Below, piece after piece: positions 1 to 15,153 of a DNA stretch of 15,153 bases. Source of the DNA: a virus; UHGV virus genome UHGV-0197611, one strand, 5' to 3'. How positions within the stretch are numbered: position 1 is the first letter of the stretch; every line of letters starts with the position of its first letter. The translations under genes were made by a program, and so were the position numbers. Under the pieces are notes generated by a model. That model saw only the letters and a program-made list of their open reading frames with translations, had not been told where the DNA came from and searched no databases.

Positions 1-110
1 ATAATATTTCGTCCACCGATACCCTTTATTTGGGTATCGCGAGTAAGCCCCAGAATCTGGGTGTTACTCTTACTACCCAAACTACGGGTAGTTTCCGTAG
101 TTTCATGGTC

Positions 111-179
111 GAGTTGCAGATCTGCAACTCACCCACCAGCCAACCCATTTTGGGGCTGTCGGGAATATCAACCAGTTAC
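111..179. repeat. Left-end repeated module, copy A: perfect 20-bp palindrome GAGTTGCAGATCTGCAACTC (111-130) followed by CCAGCCAAC (136-144), ATTTTG (147-152), TCGGGAATATCA (159-170), AGTTAC (174-179)
   Basis: Read directly. The same ordered set of motifs recurs at 422-482 with near-identical spacing. Confidence 0.7.
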
Positions 180-421
180 TGACAATGCTCTGGGCGTTCT
201 GTCTAGCTGGTGGCTGTGGCTGGACGCTAATTTTTGCGTACCACTTTTGCGCACTTTTTCAGGGTCGGATTTCAGATCCCCACCATTCTGGGAGCAGTTG
301 CAGGGGCCGAATAAATCAATAGCCGTGCTGGTAACGTTTTGCATGACAAGTTTTGACAGTTTTTTATCTTCCGGCCTCCTCAAAATTGAGGATTGAAGAA
401 AAGTCAATGGGTTAGGTCATC

Positions 422-482
422 GTGCAAATTTGCACTATGCCAGCCAACGCAATTTTGCGTTATCGGGAATATCAGCAAGTTA
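422..482. repeat. Left-end repeated module, copy B: 14-bp palindrome GTGCAAATTTGCAC (422-435), CCAGCCAAC (440-448), ATTTTG (452-457), TCGGGAATATCA (462-473), AGTTAC (477-482)
   Basis: Read directly. Lies immediately 3' of the 96-aa ORF on the minus strand, whose TAA stop at 480-482 sits inside the AGTTAC motif. Confidence 0.7.
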
Positions 483-770
483 CCGCCGCAGTCGTTCCGG
501 CTTCTTCCACTGGTAAGTATTTTTCGCGCTCTCCCTCCGTTGTTGAGAACGGCGACGGTATGCCAGCAACTCAAGGACTCTGGTTCGTATGTTGCGCATA
601 TCCACGCCGTTAAGCTCAATACCGTCACGGCGCATCACCTCAGCCACCACACGCGCGTAATTTTCGGCTATCACGCTGTCCGGCTGTGTAGCCTGTTCGT
701 CAGGCTGCTGACTGATTCCGGTAATGCGGCGAATTATTTTTAGTAGATCAGTTTCAGTCATTCTCGTCAT
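480..770 (-). CDS. Hypothetical protein (96 aa), translationally coupled to TerL; basic C-terminus
   Basis: ATG at 770-768 overlaps the TerL TGA stop (ATGA, 767-770). No recognisable motif. A plus-strand ORF (393..743) overlaps it and cannot be fully excluded. Confidence 0.5.
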   Translation of the reverse strand: MTRMTETDLLKIIRRITGISQQPDEQATQPDSVIAENYARVVAEVMRRDGIELNGVDMRNIRTRVLELLAYRRRSQQRRESAKNTYQWKKPERLRR

Positions 771-2428
771 ACCCCATCAAACGCCGCAAGTCGCTCTTTG
801 TGGCTGTCGCTCATATCAAATGCAAATTCCTCATGCTCTGCCTGGAATGTGCCAAACGCCATCAGCGCCGCAACGCTCGGGTCTATCTTGTTGGATGATT
901 TTTTCTTGTTCGGCTTGATATTGGCGTTCGCGTCACTCTGCATCACAACATTACTCATTGACCAGGCCAGCACCGGATCACCACGATGCACAATCACCTT
1001 CCGGTTAACAAAAACTTCGAACGATTTCGCCGCCGGACTGAAACGAAGGTATGTTTGCGGGAACGGCTCCACCTCAAATCCTGCCCCCTGTAGCTGCGTC
1101 CTCAGGTGCGTGGCGTTCCATGTATCGAAGCCCACCAGCCTGATATTGAAATTCTCTGCATCCGCCATGATGTCATCACGGATACGGTCATAATCAATGC
1201 AGTCACCCGGTGTTGTGCGTATCCAGCCCGCCTTTACCCACTGGCGATAGATGGCGCGGTTTTTATTGGCGGGGTTCTGTAGCTGAAATTCCGGCAGATA
1301 GTGACGGGAAACCAGCATAATCTTTTTACCGACCGGAAAGGCATAGCACACGCTGGAAATATCGCTGGTTGATGATAAGTCCAGCCCCGCGTAGCACTCC
1401 TGCCCGTATAAATCCGCCTCCGCGAACGTTCCGGCGCACTCCGCCCATGCACCGTTACCCATCCACGGCGTAGCCCCCTGACACCAGATATTGAATCGCT
1501 TGGTGAGCATTTCCACCCACTGCGACGGAATACCCCGCGCTTTCTGGATGGTTGAGGCCAGTTTTTCACGATCGACGGAAACATCGATATTTGGATTCGC
1601 CTTTATCCACATCGCCGGATCGTCAACCTCGCTTTCATCATCCAGCTCGTAAATCAGAACGAACATGGATTCGTTCATCTCTTCACCATCCAGTATCTGA
1701 CAGCAATAGTCATAGTGTTGTTTACAGGCTGAAACAACGTTGCTCCCCGATGTGGTGATGGCAAATAACAGCCCCTCCGGACGCGCCCCCATCCCCAGCT
1801 CAAGTGCGGAATAAACCCCGTTGTCTGGGTGCAGGTGATATTCATCCACAATGGCAAGACTCGGGTTTGTCCCCTCAATGGTTGCCGCTTTTGCTGCCAG
1901 TGGCTTTAACAGGCTGTTGGTTTTCGGGTGTATCACCTTGTGCGCCTGAATATTTACCCGCTTTCGTAACGGTCGGGATAAAAGGCACATCTGACGCGCA
2001 TCATCAAACACGATCCGCGCCTGATCACGACTCACGGCGGCGGTGTAAATATCCTGCTGCCCGTTTTCCATAACCAGAAACCAGTTAGCCAGGATAGCGG
2101 CGACCGTGGATTTGGCATTTTTTCGCGGTACTTCAATGAATGCGCTGGTGTATTTGCGCCGTCCGGTGGCCTTAACCTTAAAGCCCAGGATGCAGGCAAA
2201 GGCGAACTGCTGCCACGGCTCCAGTTCAATGGGACTACCGCGCATTGCGCCTTTTACGTGCGGACACACCCGGGAAAAGGCAATAAACCGCTCCACGACA
2301 TCCGGATCGAACGTGTAAAGGGAGTTTTCAAGGTCAGAAAAATACCGTTTAACGGCCTGTTTCAGTCGTTTACAGGCCGTAATTTTGCCGTTTTTTACGC
2401 CTTCTGCGTACTCATGCCAGGCGGTCAA
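767..2428 (-). CDS. terL: Terminase large subunit (HK97-like Terminase_1 type)
   Basis: 553-aa translation with deviant Walker A-like VPRKNAKST and Walker B-like LAIVDEYH, and overall large-terminase character. The only in-frame start before the conserved N-terminus is TTG at 2428-2426. The TerS stop (2412-2414) overlaps the 5' end. Confidence 0.92.
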   Translation of the reverse strand: MTAWHEYAEGVKNGKITACKRLKQAVKRYFSDLENSLYTFDPDVVERFIAFSRVCPHVKGAMRGSPIELEPWQQFAFACILGFKVKATGRRKYTSAFIEVPRKNAKSTVAAILANWFLVMENGQQDIYTAAVSRDQARIVFDDARQMCLLSRPLRKRVNIQAHKVIHPKTNSLLKPLAAKAATIEGTNPSLAIVDEYHLHPDNGVYSALELGMGARPEGLLFAITTSGSNVVSACKQHYDYCCQILDGEEMNESMFVLIYELDDESEVDDPAMWIKANPNIDVSVDREKLASTIQKARGIPSQWVEMLTKRFNIWCQGATPWMGNGAWAECAGTFAEADLYGQECYAGLDLSSTSDISSVCYAFPVGKKIMLVSRHYLPEFQLQNPANKNRAIYRQWVKAGWIRTTPGDCIDYDRIRDDIMADAENFNIRLVGFDTWNATHLRTQLQGAGFEVEPFPQTYLRFSPAAKSFEVFVNRKVIVHRGDPVLAWSMSNVVMQSDANANIKPNKKKSSNKIDPSVAALMAFGTFQAEHEEFAFDMSDSHKERLAAFDGV

Positions 2429-2768
2429 GTTCGTCCTCTTCCTCTGTTTCCGGTGGATTTCTGCGACGGCTTACCGGGTCAAAACCCAGCAAAGAAGCCA
2501 TTTTGATCATTATTCTTTCTGCGTCAGCCTTTGCGCTCAGTGCGGGGTTTCTGCTCTCGCTGCCCTGACTGTTAACAATGCTGAACCCGCGCGTCGCAAG
2601 GTCTTCGACGGCTTTGCGGTATATGGAGTAGTTAACACAATACAGTTCCAGATTGCTCCAGTCGGCGGGGGTAAGGTCTTCCCGCCCGGAAAGCTGGCGC
2701 GATTTTTCCTTCCACTGCCTGACCGCGATTTCATCCAGGTAAGCGGGGGCTTTTGGTGGTCTTGCCAT
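2412..2768 (-). CDS. terS: Terminase small subunit (P27-family-like)
   Basis: ATG at 2768-2766 gives 118 aa beginning MARPPKAPAYLDEIAVRQW... with the conserved LELYCVNYSIY segment typical of P27-type small terminases. The longer track ORF (to 2909) starts upstream at a non-conserved extension. Confidence 0.82.
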   Translation of the reverse strand: MARPPKAPAYLDEIAVRQWKEKSRQLSGREDLTPADWSNLELYCVNYSIYRKAVEDLATRGFSIVNSQGSESRNPALSAKADAERIMIKMASLLGFDPVSRRRNPPETEEEDELDRLA

Positions 2769-2887
2769 GTTCTTTTTTCGCCCAATTATTTTCAAAAAAA
2801 TTACCGTGCACAAAAATTTGAGGGGGCGGTCGGTGTCCGGCAGGGACGGTTTCGTCCTGAAAACCACCCCCACCCCCTCTGACGGCC
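2769..2887. other. Structured intergenic region between HNH gene cluster and terS; candidate cos/packaging-initiation region or attenuator
   Basis: G/C-run inverted repeat GAGGGGG (2820-2826) / CCCCCTC (2873-2879) enclosing an imperfect hairpin CAGGGACGGTTTCGTCCTG, flanked on the terS side by A/T runs. Its position between HNH and terS is where HK97-type cos sites are expected. Confidence 0.3.
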
Positions 2888-3073
2888 TCACCAGCGATTG
2901 CGAAAACATTCCATGACCTCGCGGTCACGGTCGGTTAATCGCTTCGCTGTGGTGCGTTTTGTGCGCCCTGTCCTGTTGGCTTTGTGCTCTGTCTCCTGTG
3001 TCTTCCATGTGTCACGCTGCCTTATCAGTCCACGTATCAGCCTGGTTTGCTCCTGTTCAGTCATCATCGCCAT
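2888..3073 (-). CDS. Small basic hypothetical protein (about 61 aa), start overlapping the HNH stop
   Basis: ORF MAMMTEQEQTRLIRGLIRQRDTWKTQ... fills part of the 288-bp gap between HNH and terS. No clear RBS. The track's 126-aa version overlaps HNH in another frame and is unlikely. Confidence 0.3.
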   Translation of the reverse strand: MAMMTEQEQTRLIRGLIRQRDTWKTQETEHKANRTGRTKRTTAKRLTDRDREVMECFRNRW

Positions 3074-3497
3074 ACATCCAGTCGTTACGGTGTGCCGCCC
3101 GTTCTTCCTGCTCGCGATACATGCCCGCTTTACGGTTTGCTTTCGTGGCTGGATCTTCCCGTGTCGTCTTACGGTTGTGGCACGTCTGGCACAATGCCTG
3201 GTGATTCCACTCAGGCCAGAAGAGAACATCACCGCCGCCATTGATGGGAATGATGTGATCCACCACAAGAGCTGGCGTATAAATCCCCTTAGCCAGACAA
3301 CGCACGCATAACGGGTTTTTGCTCAGGTACAGGGCGCGGTATTTGTCCCACTGTCGGGAATACCCGCGCGCGCGGCGGTGTCCCCGTCTGGCATCCTCTG
3401 CACGCCATGCAGCCCGCCTGTGCTCTTCACACTTGCCGGACTTCACGCGCTTATTACAGCCAGGCTCAGTGCATCGCCTTAATGGTTGCCACGGCAT
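3057..3497 (-). CDS. HNH endonuclease (terminase-associated type)
   Basis: 146 aa with Cys pairs (CTEPGC, CVRC, CQTC) and the HNH core DHIIPINGGGD...NHQALCQTCHNRK. ATG at 3497-3495 overlaps the upstream gene's TGA stop (TGATG). Confidence 0.88.
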   Translation of the reverse strand: MPWQPLRRCTEPGCNKRVKSGKCEEHRRAAWRAEDARRGHRRARGYSRQWDKYRALYLSKNPLCVRCLAKGIYTPALVVDHIIPINGGGDVLFWPEWNHQALCQTCHNRKTTREDPATKANRKAGMYREQEERAAHRNDWMYGDDD

Positions 3498-3799
3498 CAG
3501 TACACCCCTACGTCACGATAAACTGACCAGAGCGCAGAAATAGCCATAGGCAGTTCCGAGTGCTCCACTGGTGAAACCGCTTCCCGGTTCTCGTACAGGA
3601 AAGCGATGTACATCAGGCAACCAACACGCATTGCCGGGGTAAATTCCAGCCCGTCTTCAAAACGTTTCCCGATATGCTTCTGGCAGGCTTCCAGCGCCGC
3701 ATCGGTATACATTTTCAGAAGTTCGCCTTCACCGGATAAATCATCATCAAGTCGAAGATGTGCCCTGACTTCATCAGGTGTAATTCTGGCTTCACTCAT
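3497..3799 (-). CDS. Head-tail connector protein (gp6-like, Phage_connect_1 type)
   Basis: ATG at 3799-3797 preceded by GGGAGA RBS. The 100-aa product MSEARITPDEVRAHLRLDDD... matches the characteristic N-terminus of gp6-like connectors. The track ORF begins at an upstream GTG. Confidence 0.75.
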   Translation of the reverse strand: MSEARITPDEVRAHLRLDDDLSGEGELLKMYTDAALEACQKHIGKRFEDGLEFTPAMRVGCLMYIAFLYENREAVSPVEHSELPMAISALWSVYRDVGVY

Positions 3800-5006
3800 C
3801 TTTTCTCCCTTTAATTTCCACAGTCTGTTTCCATGCCTGGCTGAACTCATCACCACCTTCACGCGGCGGCATACCCTCACGCTCACGGGCTTCGTTCGGA
3901 TTCATGATCCCGTTCTTAATCCCTTTCTCATACGTGGCATAACGTTCGGTGGGTGTGGCGCGTAATAAATCGGCTGAATCAAACTCAACCAGATAACGGG
4001 TACCAGGTACGGGAGAAGCCACCAGCAAAGCGGCCTTGATTTGCTGTTCGAAGTTCGCCAGCCACGGGCGCATTGTCATGGTCAGAAACGCGCGGCTTGC
4101 CTCGCTGAAATTGCTGTAGGTGCTGTTGCTGTATTCCTGCAGAAAAATAGGCGATACGTTGAACATGCGGGCGATGTCTTCAATGGAGAAGCGACGGGAG
4201 GCCAGCCATTCCGCATCCTGGTTACTCATTCCCAGTTGCCTGTAATCCATGCCCCCTTCAAGGATTGGCGTTTTTCCGGCATTTTTCGCCCCCTTGTAGC
4301 GTTCCAGAGCATCCAATGCCTGTTTACCTTTCACGCCGTCCAGCCATTCGCCTGACGTGATAATCCCTGCCGCCATCATGCCATCTTTCATAATGCTGGC
4401 TCCGTGGCGCTGTTGAGCAAGGCCAAGCCCAAGTGCCTCACGGCAAATCGTGACGGGGGAGCGCCCCAGAAAGCCATCATCCGAGGCATAGCGGAGATGC
4501 AGAACTTCTTCCTGTAAATACGTGCGCACCGTTCCTGTATAGGGTTCGGTGATGGTATAGCGGTATTTGTGTGCGCCTGTGCGTTCCGGTACAACACACC
4601 CCGGCGCATAAGGATGAAGTGATTTTGGCTGCCCGTCCTGCCCCCACTCAATAACCGCATAGGCGTTACCGTTCAGCAGGCAGTGACGCATCATTGTGCG
4701 TTTAAACTGGTAAGGTGTCTGGCACGAATTAGGCTGCTCATTCAGCAGAATATCTACCGGGTGACTGTCCAGCCATTCCCGCGCCTCCCTGCCCTTGTCA
4801 TTACGTACCAGATACAGATAACACGGCATCGTGGCCACCGCCTCAGCGATGACAGAAACCGCATTCATCACTGCAGGCAATGATTCAGCCGTCCCGGCAG
4901 AAACATATTCTCCGGATCCGGTATTCGGTACGCCGGACAGCGCCAGAAAATCATCAATGGACAGGTTACGCTGCTCGCTTTTTTTACGACTAAAAGGCCA
5001 CCACAT
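3792..5006 (-). CDS. Portal protein (HK97 family-like)
   Basis: About 400-aa product downstream of the prohead protease and upstream of the connector. Start chosen at ATG 5006-5004 (MWWPF...), 1 nt after the protease TGA stop. The track's TTG start at 5096 would overlap the protease gene by 90 nt. Confidence 0.85.
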   Translation of the reverse strand: MWWPFSRKKSEQRNLSIDDFLALSGVPNTGSGEYVSAGTAESLPAVMNAVSVIAEAVATMPCYLYLVRNDKGREAREWLDSHPVDILLNEQPNSCQTPYQFKRTMMRHCLLNGNAYAVIEWGQDGQPKSLHPYAPGCVVPERTGAHKYRYTITEPYTGTVRTYLQEEVLHLRYASDDGFLGRSPVTICREALGLGLAQQRHGASIMKDGMMAAGIITSGEWLDGVKGKQALDALERYKGAKNAGKTPILEGGMDYRQLGMSNQDAEWLASRRFSIEDIARMFNVSPIFLQEYSNSTYSNFSEASRAFLTMTMRPWLANFEQQIKAALLVASPVPGTRYLVEFDSADLLRATPTERYATYEKGIKNGIMNPNEAREREGMPPREGGDEFSQAWKQTVEIKGRKDE

Positions 5007-7039: not shown

Positions 7040-7786
7040 ATGGAGATTCAAGTGACAAAAGAAATTCTTGCTGTTCCTGGGATGCGACCATCCCCATTGT
7101 TCAAAAGGACTTATAAATTAGTTCGGGAGATTGACGAAAGATTAACCAAACTGATTCATAGATGGCGATTTTTCAATGCAGGCCCCCCCATGAAAGTTAC
7201 TGCATATGATGGAACAGAAATATGCTATCAAGGTTTGGCATTTAAAGGTACTCCCGTTCAAATTTTTTGGAATGGTTTTATCGATCCTTACATTGAAAAT
7301 AACTCAGAAATTGTTTTAGAGCAGACCTCCGCGTTAGCAATTGAATGTCAATTCTCAATAGAGGAGTCAATCGAGGAGGCTAAATTACTATTACTTGTGA
7401 TGATTCGCAGGCTTTACTATGAAATGGCCGAAACAGATAAAATATTAAGAGGTGATGGGTTTTCCTTCCCAGAAAAAAAAGACGTTAGTGGTTATATTGA
7501 AAGTATCTCTCAAAAAATCATAGAACATGCTGAAATTGAAAAGCTAAAAAAAACGCATCCAAAACAAAACATATTCAACATAGCTACTGTAAATAGCCAA
7601 TACGTACAACTTGGTACAAATAACAATATTAATATACAAGAGCTCTCTGAGTTCTTCTCAAAAATTGCATCAACTGGTGAAAAAGAAATTATTACTCTCT
7701 CAAAAAACCTTCTTAAGAAGGCCTACTCAAAAAACTTACTGAGTAAAGAAAACTATGAAGCTCTAATATCAAACCTTAACACATAG
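7040..7786 (+). CDS. Hypothetical protein (248 aa), first gene of AT-rich plus-strand cassette
   Basis: Long ORF in a markedly AT-rich segment on the opposite strand to all flanking modules. Its C-terminal region (FNIATVNSQYVQLGTNNNINI...KNLLKK) is paralogous to the C-terminus of the next gene. No strong SD upstream. Confidence 0.72.
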   Translation: MEIQVTKEILAVPGMRPSPLFKRTYKLVREIDERLTKLIHRWRFFNAGPPMKVTAYDGTEICYQGLAFKGTPVQIFWNGFIDPYIENNSEIVLEQTSALAIECQFSIEESIEEAKLLLLVMIRRLYYEMAETDKILRGDGFSFPEKKDVSGYIESISQKIIEHAEIEKLKKTHPKQNIFNIATVNSQYVQLGTNNNINIQELSEFFSKIASTGEKEIITLSKNLLKKAYSKNLLSKENYEALISNLNT

Positions 7787-7845
7787 ACAAAATACACTTT
7801 CAAATCTACTAGTTAAACGCAAAAGCGATCACGAGGAGCAACATA

Positions 7846-8355
7846 ATGGATCTTAACGTCATGGCATATCCAGAAAAATTCACAATCGCAGGAGTTGAAT
7901 ACAAGGGGAAAAGAAACTCAGCTGAAAAAAAAGTGCTAATCCCTTATACTGAAGAACCAGATATTAATATTGGAGATGAAATCACTCAAAAACTAGGGAA
8001 GGGGGAAATAATATTAAAAGTAATTGATATGTCATTTTTACCAGGAGGTACACTCAATGTTGGTACTAATCACCCTCACATGCTTACATTAAAAGTCGAG
8101 AATCTGACTGCTAATGAACATAAACCAAAACAATCTAGCCAAAATACATTTAACATTGGTAACATATCCGGTACACAGGTTCAACTCGGTGAGCATAACA
8201 ATCTTATTGTAAATCTCAGCATAACTGAACTTGTTGAAAAAGTTTCTCAATCACAAGATCCTCAGGCAAAAAATTTGCTTAAGGATTTACTAAATAATAG
8301 TACGGTAGCCAGTCTCGTTGGTGCTGGTGCGTCCGCCTTGTTAACAATGCTTTGA
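7846..8355 (+). CDS. Hypothetical protein (169 aa), second cassette gene; short hydrophobic small-residue C-terminal tail
   Basis: ATG at 7846 preceded by GAGGAG (7833-7838). Shares the module FNIGNISGTQVQLGEHNNLIV...KNLLKDLL with the upstream protein. Ends in TVASLVGAGASALLTML. Followed immediately by a strong hairpin. Confidence 0.8.
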   Translation: MDLNVMAYPEKFTIAGVEYKGKRNSAEKKVLIPYTEEPDINIGDEITQKLGKGEIILKVIDMSFLPGGTLNVGTNHPHMLTLKVENLTANEHKPKQSSQNTFNIGNISGTQVQLGEHNNLIVNLSITELVEKVSQSQDPQAKNLLKDLLNNSTVASLVGAGASALLTML

Positions 8356-8792: not shown

Positions 8793-9020
8793 CTTCACCT
8801 GTTCACCTTTTGATATTTTATCTTTTAATTCATAAGGTTAAGGGGTGAACAGTTTCACAAAAACTATTCACCAACTGTTCACCACTGTTCACCCTTGAAG
8901 CTCAATAAACAATCAAAAAGGTGAACAGTGAATAGTTTGGTGAACAGTTCATAAATAACTGTTCACCCTATAATATACTGATATAAAAGATATTTATGAC
9001 AGGGTGAACAGTGGTGAACA
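8793..9020. repeat. Iteron array / putative origin of replication (P4 type I-like octamer TGTTCACC)
   Basis: Nine perfect copies of TGTTCACC/GGTGAACA in both orientations (plus strand 8800, 8876, 8886, 8960; complement 8844, 8920, 8939, 9003, 9013), plus degenerate copies (8793, 8865, 8928), interspersed with AT-rich spacers and lying immediately 3' of the replication gene. Confidence 0.8.
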
Positions 9021-12705: not shown

Positions 12706-13439
12706 GTTCGCCCTAAGTATTTAGCCCACGTATTCTTATCTGTTGCGGGAAGAAACACCCCTTTCATCGCTGCCGCAGCCTCTAAAACAGCGATCACTTT
12801 AGCAACTGGAGCAGTTCCAATATCTATATCATCCATTTCTGGAATTAGTTTGATTAATGCAGGGATCAACTCAGCTTTCTTCGCAAGAGTTTTTGGCGAT
12901 TCTCCCATTTTTCTTCCAGGCATGGTTCCAACATCTTTGATATGCTCCAAATCCTTAGCCATTACACATAAAAACCTTCTGTCGATCTCAATAGCCCCAT
13001 CACTCATAATTTGACATTCCCAGTTTTCTGATTCAGGACGAGTTGAAAAAAAAGATGATACTATCCTTGCATCATTGCCAATAAATTCAAGTTCAGAAAA
13101 ACTTTCCCGATTTAGATAGAAGAAACCGCAAAAATTCTTTGCAAGATAAGAAGCCACACCAAAATAATTTACCCATTCAAAATCGCTACCAACAGGCTTC
13201 ATCCCTGTAATTACCCAGCGATCCCCTTGCAACATCCCTCCAGAATCAACATCAATATTTTCAACTAATGATTTTGGTATAACTAGCGATTTACATGGAT
13301 GACAGTTTGGAAAATAAACAGAAATATTCAAAGCACCTATAGCAGCAAAATGATATATATCATTAAGCGTACATCCCAGCTTCTTTGCTGCTTCAGGCAA
13401 TGGATAATATATACGCTCAGGGATGCTTATCTTTTTCAT
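12702..13439 (-). CDS. Hypothetical protein (245 aa) with N-terminal HTH-like segment; between integrase and alpA
   Basis: ATG at 13439-13437 overlaps the integrase stop (ATGA). N-terminus PEAAKKLGCTLNDIYHFAAIGAL looks like a helix-turn-helix. More AT-rich than int and alpA by eye. Confidence 0.75.
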   Translation of the reverse strand: MKKISIPERIYYPLPEAAKKLGCTLNDIYHFAAIGALNISVYFPNCHPCKSLVIPKSLVENIDVDSGGMLQGDRWVITGMKPVGSDFEWVNYFGVASYLAKNFCGFFYLNRESFSELEFIGNDARIVSSFFSTRPESENWECQIMSDGAIEIDRRFLCVMAKDLEHIKDVGTMPGRKMGESPKTLAKKAELIPALIKLIPEMDDIDIGTAPVAKVIAVLEAAAAMKGVFLPATDKNTWAKYLGRT

Positions 13440-14659
13440 TTCGCTACCTTCAATATTTTTACATTTGAATACTGACCAGAAATAACCTCAAGCCGTTCCA
13501 TCCATTTATTTAGAGCGTCTAGTTTTTCTGGTAAGTACTGGCTACGATTGTATATGGCCATTACACCACCTAATGTGTGACCGAGAAGCTGTTCAACAAC
13601 ATGTGGTGCAATCCCCATGTTATTTAGTGTGGTAGCAAACGTCCTGCGCAGGTCGTGAAGTGTCCACGATTCAATATGCCCCAGACGCTTATATATCATC
13701 CTCCCCCATTGGCTGACAGCTTCTGGTTTCTTTATTTCACCCAACAAAAGACCTGAGTTTTTGTGTTGCTCTATAAGCTGTTGGATGAATGGGCGTATTA
13801 CCACTGGAATAGGGCGCAATATCTTCTCTCCGCCTTTGCTGTGTTCTTTAGGCACTGTCCAGATCCAATCCTTTAAATCCCACTCTGTAATACGTGACAA
13901 CCGAAGCTCCTGGGTTCGACATCCAAACACCACCAATAGACGCAACAACGATGAATAGTATGGTTTAAATTTCTTACCTGAACATTCCTGCCAAATATCT
14001 GCTAACTCTTGACTGCTGTGTTCCCTATCGCGCTTATTCTGTTTTCTACCAACATCATCGATAGTCAGGTCATCCAGAGCATTGCTAACCGCATAACGAT
14101 GTACGCGGCAAAACTTCAGAGCCTGCTTACACATCTGCAGCAAATAACCAGCTGCCACTGGAGCGTCATTCCTTACTCTAGCGAAACACTCCAGCCAATG
14201 CCGGGTTTCGCACATTGATAACGGATAATCACCTATATAGGGGAAAATATGCTTCCTCAGTTGCTCAATGTGTTTATCAACATTCGTGCGCTTGTAAACG
14301 GCGTATTCTCTGATCCAGTAATCCAGAGCCTCTTTTACCGTCACTGGTTTGAGTGTTTCATGTATTGCCACATTTAACCGATGCTTTGGATTTTTACCTT
14401 CAGCAAGCCATGCTCGACACTGTTCACGTTTCTCGCGCGCAGCTTTCAGAGAAAGATCCGGGTAGTTTCCAAGCTTAACACGCTGTGAATACGATTCACG
14501 CCCACCAATCCGGAAAGAGAAATACCAAGTAAGAACGCCAATTTTTGACACCTTGATACTCAATCCATCACCGTCAGCATAAAATCTATCTCTATCGATT
14601 TCCCTCCCCAGCATCTTACGCAACGATGTATCGCTTAATTTGTTCGTTCCTCCAGCCAT
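13436..14659 (-). CDS. int: Tyrosine site-specific integrase (P4-like)
   Basis: 407 aa from ATG 14659-14657 (AAGG upstream); the track start is an upstream alternative codon. C-terminal catalytic signature HDLRRTFAT...LLGHTLGGVMAIYNRSQY and a typical N-terminal arm-binding-like region. Confidence 0.92.
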   Translation of the reverse strand: MAGGTNKLSDTSLRKMLGREIDRDRFYADGDGLSIKVSKIGVLTWYFSFRIGGRESYSQRVKLGNYPDLSLKAAREKREQCRAWLAEGKNPKHRLNVAIHETLKPVTVKEALDYWIREYAVYKRTNVDKHIEQLRKHIFPYIGDYPLSMCETRHWLECFARVRNDAPVAAGYLLQMCKQALKFCRVHRYAVSNALDDLTIDDVGRKQNKRDREHSSQELADIWQECSGKKFKPYYSSLLRLLVVFGCRTQELRLSRITEWDLKDWIWTVPKEHSKGGEKILRPIPVVIRPFIQQLIEQHKNSGLLLGEIKKPEAVSQWGRMIYKRLGHIESWTLHDLRRTFATTLNNMGIAPHVVEQLLGHTLGGVMAIYNRSQYLPEKLDALNKWMERLEVISGQYSNVKILKVAK

Positions 14660-14685
14660 AGAAAACCTTAATTCATATTGAAAAC

Positions 14686-14707
14686 TGACTGCACCACTGA
14701 CTGCACA
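14686..14707. repeat. Int-proximal direct repeat copy 1: TGACTGCAC-C-ACTGACTGCAC-A (two tandem TGACTGCAC units)
   Basis: Identical 22-mer recurs at 14920-14941. Copy 1 lies 27 bp upstream of the int start codon. Confidence 0.75.
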
Positions 14708-14875
14708 CTTTAATATTACCCTATGAACAGAAATGAACAAAGGTAAACTAAAGAAACAACATTAATCATTTTATTCAATAAGTTATATAAACACTAACGA
14801 ACCATGACAAACTGTAAGAAACATAGGTTTTGATAATACGGCATGAACTAATTCAGGTTAGCTAAATGCTTGATT

Positions 14876-14912
14876 AAAAAGGCGCTACTCGGCATGGGGA
14901 AGCGCCTTTTTT
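14876..14912. terminator. Possible bidirectional intrinsic terminator
   Basis: AAAAA - GGCGCT - 14-nt loop - AGCGCC - TTTTTT. The stem is short and the loop long, so stability is uncertain. Confidence 0.4.
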
Positions 14913-14919
14913 ATTAAAA

Positions 14920-14941
14920 TGACTGCACCACTGACTGCACA
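14920..14941. repeat. Int-proximal direct repeat copy 2 (identical 22-mer)
   Basis: Read directly. 234 bp from copy 1, on the far side of the hairpin. Confidence 0.75.
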
Positions 14942-15153
14942 TAAGCACGAACGAAACCGAACAATAATAAATAGAATAGATACCTGCCAGTGGTTATGTC
15001 TCCGCAGTGATGTGTTTTTTCATTTTTAATGGGGATAAAAACGGTGTGGTGAGCGGTCCGGAAGACGCCATGGCAAGAGTTTTGCCCCGCTTCTCCCTGT
15101 GCATGATAGATAACCGAGGGCGGAATTCCGCCTTCGGTGCTCACATATGAGAA

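Follow-up and report, generated by a model that had tools for sequence, protein, structure and literature searches.

The DNA analysed here, the whole 15,153-nt stretch of UHGV virus genome UHGV-0197611 (the window), is the excised circular attP form of a satellite island, opened at an arbitrary point. Its gene order on the minus strand begins with an integrase (13436-14740) and continues with AlpA, a D5-type primase, an HK97-type capsid protein, protease, portal, connector, an HNH endonuclease and a P27-family TerS, followed by TerL (767-2428, minus strand) and, as the last gene of the packaging operon, a 96-aa gene of family phrog_1561 (480-770, minus strand). This is the gene set of a capsid-forming phage-inducible chromosomal island (cf-PICI; bioRxiv 10.1101/2022.09.08.507074). 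Between the last operon gene and attP, whose core (14838-14914) duplicates 77 bp from the 3' end of fis with its terminator, lies a non-coding stretch of ~720 nt (14915-15153 plus 1-482) that harbours the subject of this study, a cluster of three repeated units of about 53 nt, each with a short palindrome and a conserved tail. Sequence comparison identifies the unit family as homologous to the segment of the phage gene roi that combines a palindrome with the consensus of integration host factor (IHF); the homology is restricted to that segment.

The window is circularly permuted, because its last 316 nt and first 200 nt run colinear with the fis-side island junction of E. coli D8, differing from it at a single position in 516 nt. 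Window positions 1-600 are identical in D8, where the island sits between fis and yhdJ, and on the int side D8 runs into yhdJ past window position 14914; the 14914/14915 junction is found in one place in no complete E. coli genome. Circular permutation replaces a reading of the right end of the window as tandem islands. The remainder of the non-coding terminal region (14915-15153), contiguous with position 1 in the circle, contains CGAAC arm-like repeats.

A preliminary description, made from the DNA alone, had reported two copies of a structured module some 310 bp apart in the 3' flank of the packaging operon. The module itself is real: blocks 136-179 and 440-483 are identical at 36 of 44 positions (82%) in ungapped register, for which the chance expectation in the window is ~4e-5. 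The distance from start to start is 304 bp rather than 310, and the flank proves to be the non-coding DNA of ~720 nt that separates the 96-aa gene from attP. Palindrome A, GAGTTGCAGATCTGCAACTC (111-130), is as perfect and as improbable as had been claimed, being the sole perfect 20-bp palindrome in the window (0.014 expected per 15 kb); it has a central GATC, lies where the unit array joins a conserved hairpin run termed segment X, and is conserved, with GCAAATCTGC variants, in five other loci (L002, L003, L007, L009 and L030). Palindrome B, GTGCAAATTTGCAC (422-435), has the 14 bp ascribed to it and taken alone is within chance (0.92 expected per window), but it recurs at the same place elsewhere, in many islands between a GGGTTAGG-type and a block-type unit. 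Perfect palindromes of at least 14 bp number five in the window, three of which fall in the terminal region. A covariance-model search of the whole window (cmsearch, filters off) finds exactly three units, all on the plus strand, at 133-185, 369-421 and 437-489; the second is a degenerate copy (CCTCAAAATTGAGG + ..AGTCAATGGGTTAGG) that the count of two had missed. That the modules are non-coding was correctly stated, block B overlapping the 96-aa gene by the stop codon only (480-482).

Each of the three units carries a match to the IHF consensus, with one mismatch in the second. Unit A (133-185; 45.4 bits), of the diverged 'block' subtype, combines an imperfect hairpin at 137-158 (CAGCC..CCCATTTTGGG..GGCTG) with the tail TCGGGAATATCAACCAGTTAC, in which the IHF consensus is perfect (TATCAACCAGTTA, 166-178). 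In unit U2 (369-421; 42.8 bits) the hairpin TCCTCAAAATTGAGGA at 377-392 is followed by the tail ATTGAAGAAAAGTCAATGGGTTAGG, whose core AGTCAATGGGTTA at 402-414 has one mismatch to the consensus. Unit B (437-489; 47.3 bits) has the hairpin AACGCAATTTTGCGTT at 446-461, the tail ATCGGGAATATCAGCAAGTTAC and a core of WATCAR form, TATCAGCAAGTTA at 470-482, the TTA of which is the minus-strand stop codon of the 96-aa gene. The spacer between A and U2 ('Y-mid', 186-368), part of the 304-bp segment 136-440, contains no conserved reading frame; a small open reading frame (ORF) in 168-344 on the minus strand was discarded, its frame not being kept in the L009 homologue. Long open frames on the plus strand run through units in the roi frame at 393-743 and 160-320. 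One of them is a 116-aa ORF that is entirely antisense to the 96-aa gene, and past unit A the roi frame encodes a hydrophobic stretch, LLTMLWAFCLAGGCGWTLIFAYHFCALF.

Searching related islands for the module revealed a whole family of units distributed among E. coli satellites. IMG/VR, scanned with an exact pattern, gave 62 loci, which were lined up to define the ~53-nt unit, and the covariance model was built from an ungapped alignment of 21 units; the survey covered Escherichia, Shigella and Salmonella. In the unit, a conserved tail that reads ..TTYCGAAANAATCAAYGGGTTAGG or ..TCGGGAATATCARCMAGTTAC comes after a short palindrome or hairpin whose position is fixed. In 530 kb of sequence the model detects 139 units in 52 satellite loci, with 1-5 units per locus in a single cluster of at most 500 bp on one strand, most commonly spaced by 54 nt. 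The units are carried at the int-distal end of E. coli cf-PICIs, of classical PICIs including EcCICFT073, and of perC satellites. EcCICFT073 (L190, NC_004431), which is absent from the seed alignment, has three units (E values 6e-13 to 9e-12); there, at 3374-3655 and 3646-3851, a phrog_1561 homologue comes after rppA and is followed directly by the three units. The circular 12,152-bp perC satellite L191 (NZ_CP148430.1) has one good and one degenerate unit. Annotated as plasmid pZ1323CEC0013_1-4, it has int, perC and antA/antB and resembles a perC/TOPRIM-DUF927 satellite in its excised, circular form; the unit lies between perC and int. A scan of genome contigs with a 17-nt DNA pattern gave chance matches only, which the covariance model rejected, and a protein scan of the same contigs gave no match. 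We found no mention of the unit repeats in the available PICI literature.

The preliminary description had allowed that the region might be ordinary host sequence. It is island DNA instead: the covariance model finds no units in 20 kb of the D8 chromosome or in the host part of L001, and the same sequences recur in satellites integrated not only at fis but also at tqsA, clpS/cspD, phoQ and dinD, among them classical PICIs with a different packaging module. This distribution also bears on the suggestion that the modules are remnants of attachment-site arms. The units do lie on the att side of the last gene, and IHF sites are typical of attP arms, but the same units accompany different integrases at all of these integration sites, 360-730 bp from the core; other islands have cargo genes between segment X and att, and in perC satellites the orientation of the units relative to att is inverted. 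An origin as att arms is therefore barely credible, and the modules are, as had been noted, unrelated to the int-proximal att repeats.

The array is variable in composition. Part of window 1-600 (units or flanks) is matched in 1,254 of 5,426 complete E. coli genomes, roughly a quarter, and the full 304-bp segment 136-440, which most related islands lack, in only 44 of the 5,426. In many related islands, such as L002, position 135 is joined directly to 441, leaving a single module with 136-440 missing; these mosaic breakpoints (135/136 and 440/441) lie within the shared CCAGCCAAC. Copy number would change by recombination between units, and such recombination best explains the apparent 304-bp 'duplication'. 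Many block-type units (in L003, L010, L031 and others; for example GGGGTGTAGCCAACCC) are preceded by GTAGCC, which recalls the GTAG tag of repetitive extragenic palindromic (REP) sequences; units A and B have CCAGCC in its place.

The relationship to roi emerged when an array of three units was compared by BLAST with E. coli genomes and phages, and single units were found inside genes annotated as 'antirepressor' or 'Roi' in Shiga toxin (Stx) phages and other lambdoid phages. In three roi alleles, those of a Stx2c prophage (L192; IRHPQIEDCGRINGLGL), of the VT2-Sakai type (L193; IRNPPMVVFEKINNLGL) and of HK022 (L194; IKPPALQHTNIINDLGV), the unit lies in frame within the Rha domain (PF09669), at residues ~42-58 of intact genes, and each allele combines a palindrome with a perfect match to the IHF consensus WATCAANNNNTTR (quoted in PMC10380432). 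The match in roi is the model's sole match in each stretch searched (12.7 kb of HK022, 8 kb of L192 and 3 kb of L193). On the satellite side, L011 has three units in tandem, of which two agree with the first two of these alleles at 48 and 45 of 53 positions and the third has an HK022-type palindrome, CCTGCATTGCAGG. Within the window, U2, a PQIEDCGRINGLG-type roi segment in decay, is identical to the Stx2c-phage allele at 35 of 53 positions without gaps and has an in-frame stop. With the three Roi proteins as queries against all satellite loci, tblastn returned matches to residues 42-58 alone (33-56 in perC satellites); no other part of Roi was found in any locus. No Rha or ANT domain occurs among the window proteins scanned, and the satellite units, unlike the phage ones, do not lie inside a Rha-domain coding gene. 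The satellite palindromes are as symmetrical as the coding ones or better (CCCCCAATGGGGG vs CCCCCAATGGTGG).

The two parts of the unit are conserved in different ways. In the palindrome the sequence varies and the symmetry is kept, with at least nine unrelated stem sequences at the same position: CCTCA/TGAGG, CCCCC/GGGGG, CCTGC/GCAGG, TTCGCC/GGCGAA, CAGCC/GGCTG, AACGCA/TGCGTT, CCCA/TGGG, GCTCA/TGAGC and TTCCACA/TGTGGAA. Perfect stems average 5.1 bp as against 3.3 bp in shuffles, double-change cells number 36 as against 15.8, and the observed score was reached by 0 of 500 shuffles; slid controls for covariation are blurred by register shifts. In the tail, the columns that are fully invariant (2 bits) among 47 distinct units are A37, T41 C42 A43 and T49 T50 A51, while column 39 is W in 46, column 40 is A in 43 and column 44 is R in all 47, and these invariant columns coincide with the specified positions of WATCAANNNNTTR. 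The pattern WATCARNNNNTTR is matched by 43 of the 47 distinct units, and the units, at 0.7% of the 530 kb of loci, contain 132 of its 222 matches there; this enrichment is partly circular, the model having been built on those columns, and the informative part is which columns are invariant. The window has five IHF-consensus matches where 1.33 are expected. Outside the units, exact matches occur on the minus strand within the attP core (14863-14875) and at 8971-8983, in a non-coding stretch downstream of the primase gene that is likely the ori region.

IHF is a heterodimeric cofactor of recombination and packaging. The earlier proposal that the modules bind a dimeric regulator or a recombination or packaging protein accordingly survives in part. 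Protein binding is the best reading of them, the conserved block corresponding to the IHF consensus and the palindrome being placed as in roi, and it is the packaging site that has to be given up. A perfect palindrome could serve as a nicking site, and IHF sites do occur in lambda cosB (PMC9026076), but exact lambda cosN sequences lie elsewhere, in L002 at 7391-7402 and in EcCICFT073 at 2559-2570 (plus strand) and 3298-3309 (minus strand), the latter two in agreement with the published cos1 and cos2 (PMC6092414, PMC6739421), and a cosN-like site was not found in the window. The second, inverted cosN of EcCICFT073 lies just upstream of the phrog_1561 homologue. Moreover, the cf-PICI vB_KppS-Ant (LR881103, 16.5 kb), sequenced from an induced lysate and deposited as a linear molecule, ends in the gap between the HNH and TerS genes, its right end being homologous to window ~2854, and has no units. 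In HK97-type phages the cos region precedes terS at the left end of the genome. The ends of vB_KppS-Ant thus fall where an HK97-like cos is expected, the distance between the cut and the binding site of an HK97-type TerS being 15-29 bp. For the cf-PICI itself, cos probably lies in window ~2770-2900 (minus strand), between the HNH gene with a 61-aa ORF and TerS, and we give almost no credence to a cos or pac function of the units. This probable cos region shows a G-rich run, GGGGGTGGGGGTGG, followed by A/T tracts. A role of the units as ori was likewise rejected, PICI origins being iterons beside pri-rep (PMC6092414).

The ligand could also be encoded by the island itself, the adjacent 96-aa phrog_1561 protein with its Arg-rich C-terminus being one example, in which case the array would be unrelated to IHF and Roi. 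In both cf-PICIs and classical PICIs the unit array invariably abuts the stop codon of this gene, and the covariance model finds no units in vB_KppS-Ant, a cf-PICI without it. The perC satellites, however, carry units without a phrog_1561 gene. The protein has no recognisable DNA-binding fold, its AlphaFold2 model consists of three helices at low confidence (pLDDT 68), it has no match in Pfam or PDB, and its family is very small, 1.8e9 proteins yielding 39 clusters at 50% identity. We consider it very unlikely that the units are its binding sites.

A function in RNA was weighed as well, in which 3'-untranslated hairpins stabilise or terminate the packaging-operon transcript in the manner of REP/BIME elements; on this reading, the units having roi sense on the plus strand, read-through of the minus-strand operon would also yield RNA antisense to the roi mRNA of a helper. 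The terminal region folds far better than shuffled sequence (z -5.3 for the minus and -6.2 for the plus strand), the array begins at the stop codon of the last gene, and the complementarity of L011-type units to roi alleles amounts to 85-91% over ~50 nt. Set against this, unit folding shows no significant strand preference (p = 0.19), no U-tract follows the hairpins of A and B, which bears out the earlier statement that they are not intrinsic terminators, consensus terminator matches are weak, and conservation is concentrated on few positions rather than on full complementarity. Searches of Rfam (gathering threshold and E <= 10) and a tRNA scan returned nothing relevant for the region, and a promoter and terminator scan gave no conserved signals; together with the missing strand bias in folding, this also speaks against the duplicated promoter or small RNA that had been suggested. 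Because both strands fold equally and in perC satellites the gene upstream of the units reads the opposite strand, a strand-independent role at the DNA level fits best, and an RNA-level element appears decidedly unlikely.

Several known systems help to place the units. The closest would be the intragenic site of HK022 roi, with the related rha of phi80 and P22, a module of ~50 nt in which a small palindrome is followed 14-17 nt later by WATCAANNNNTTR. Dependence on IHF is a hallmark of Roi and Rha. Both have been linked to IHF in the titles of two earlier reports (Clerget & Boccard 1996; Henthorn & Friedman 1995). On the present alignment, the predicted Roi/IHF site of HK022 roi comprises nt 120-172 of the gene, CCTGCATTGCAG...AATCAATGATTTA (6775-6827 of L194). 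Roi is said to bind inside its own gene beside an IHF site, with IHF stabilising the binding. In contrast to this single, coding phage module, the satellite units are non-coding, lack the rest of the gene, occur in 1-5 tandem copies and form arrays between the packaging operon and attP that mix variants resembling different roi alleles.

In architecture the units resemble the bacterial interspersed mosaic elements (BIMEs) of the BIME-1/RIB (RIP) type (Boccard & Prentki 1993; PMC3333891), in which extragenic palindromes and an IHF consensus are likewise found just past an operon's last gene, strains differ in copy number and palindromes stay symmetrical while their sequence changes. The satellite units share the IHF consensus in the linker and the location at the 3' end of a transcription unit. 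They have no REP sequence or conserved GTAG tag, however, and are arranged directly instead of in alternating orientation; their stems measure 4-8 bp (rarely 11) with A/T-rich loops, as opposed to imperfect GC-rich palindromes of 20-40 nt, and they are confined to phage satellites, whereas BIMEs are dispersed by the hundreds in the chromosome. Membership was therefore rejected on the REP palindrome or tag and on orientation, and the likeness is an architectural analogy only. The architectural IHF sites of lambda (H1, H2 and H' of attP, I1 of cosB) share the consensus, the setting in a mobile element and the proximity to attP and packaging genes, but the units lie outside att and cos and are repeated in phase, whereas the lambda sites alternate with those of integrase or terminase. 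Arrays that titrate a regulator, such as datA (for DnaA) and plasmid incompatibility iterons, in which regulator sites are clustered outside the regulated gene, offer a conceptual likeness only, as the putative ligand Roi would be encoded by another element, the helper phage.

Based on the roi homology and the IHF consensus, we tentatively propose that the units are satellite copies of the roi segment that serve as IHF sites, and possibly as Roi sites, acting as decoys or sensors; we regard this as plausible while stopping short of calling it probable. In this scenario, (i) the segment would have been freed from its coding constraint and multiplied next to attP; (ii) each unit would be bound and bent by host IHF; (iii) units close to a roi allele would in addition bind the Roi of that phage; and (iv) the array would offer the regulators of lambdoid phages a set of decoy or sensor sites. 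Several of these phages are helpers of the satellites. HK022 is among the phages that supply tails to cf-PICIs (bioRxiv 10.1101/2025.02.11.637232). Modules A and B belong to the most diverged subtype, and for them IHF binding would be the safer claim.

Several observations weigh against this proposal. Units A and B are identical to the three roi alleles examined at just 19-27 of 53 positions (20-27 of 53 for unit A), and their link to roi rests on the covariance model and on intermediates such as CFT073_u1, the gene-proximal unit of EcCICFT073. Read in the roi frame, which has no stop in 37 of the 42 distinct full-length units, the invariant bases are also codons for Ile-Asn-x-Leu, so that coding ancestry could mimic a site signal. 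IHF binding at the units is predicted from a degenerate consensus, and the A/T tract typical of strong IHF sites, which lies about one helical turn upstream of the core as TTTTCGAAA in GGGTTAGG-type units, appears weak in units A and B (only ..TCGGGAATA). EcCICFT073 is mobilised by lambda and by phage 4 of CFT073. To our knowledge, lambda has no roi, and the covariance model found no unit in the phage 4 region of CFT073. Because both phages mobilise EcCICFT073, Roi is no obligatory signal for mobilisation.

A rival reading holds the units to be functionless, scars of recombination or gene conversion with the roi of co-resident phages that were amplified by slippage or unequal crossing-over. 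Such neutral debris would account for the closeness of units to different roi alleles at the DNA level, for the roi frame still open in most of them, and for the differences in copy number and composition among near-identical islands, and partial antirepressor genes abound in the nin region around roi. In the Stx2c nin region of L192 (2534-3805), roi is immediately preceded by several partial ORF6N/P22AR antirepressor pseudogenes, and this nin region looks like a recombination hotspot in the phage too. Debris would not be expected to consist of the same ~50-nt roi segment only, across three families of satellites and no fewer than five integration sites, to keep the symmetry of its palindromes through unrelated sequences, to be invariant in the IHF positions, or to hold a fixed place beside the last operon gene. 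We therefore consider a purely neutral origin unlikely.

Decoy or sensor function could also take a more specific form, which we regard as doubtful, in which the array is a multi-allelic library of decoy operators, copied from roi in a variety of lambdoid phages. A given unit would then recruit IHF together with the Roi of one class of helper or competitor phage, sensing or neutralising a growth regulator, and the library would evolve by exchange with the phages' own genes.

Other features surround the array. Segment X (13-110), a conserved hairpin run between the unit array and the cargo or att side, is present in both cf-PICIs and classical PICIs and comprises GATACCC-N7-GGGTATC at 22-42, CCCAGAATCTGGG, and CTACCC..GGGTAG / ACTACGG..CCGTAGT at 72-101. 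A perfect palindrome, GGCGGAATTCCGCC (15119-15132), is conserved and also occurs in L002 (~5965) and L007; it is contained in a longer stem, CCGAGGGCGGAATTCCGCCTTCGG, followed on the minus strand by UUAUCUAUCAU, and at the border of the cargo slot this stem is a candidate terminator of the packaging operon. Within the island, window 7040-8355 (plus strand) is probably accessory cargo.

In summary, arrays of units from this roi-related family are present in EcCICFT073, the best-studied Gram-negative satellite, as well as in the island described here. How enterobacterial PICIs perceive and manipulate their helpers is partly known, and a cis element taken from a phage regulatory gene would provide a testable link between satellite, helper and host. 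The units may also open a further, independent angle on the Roi/Rha proteins, which are poorly understood, as the only part of roi that satellites retain is the palindrome with the IHF consensus. Even if the units were neutral debris, the element would still mark a recombination hotspot that reshapes the cargo end of the islands. If the idea of a decoy library is true, a satellite could sense or neutralise a phage growth regulator by means of a cis-acting library of sites for phage proteins.

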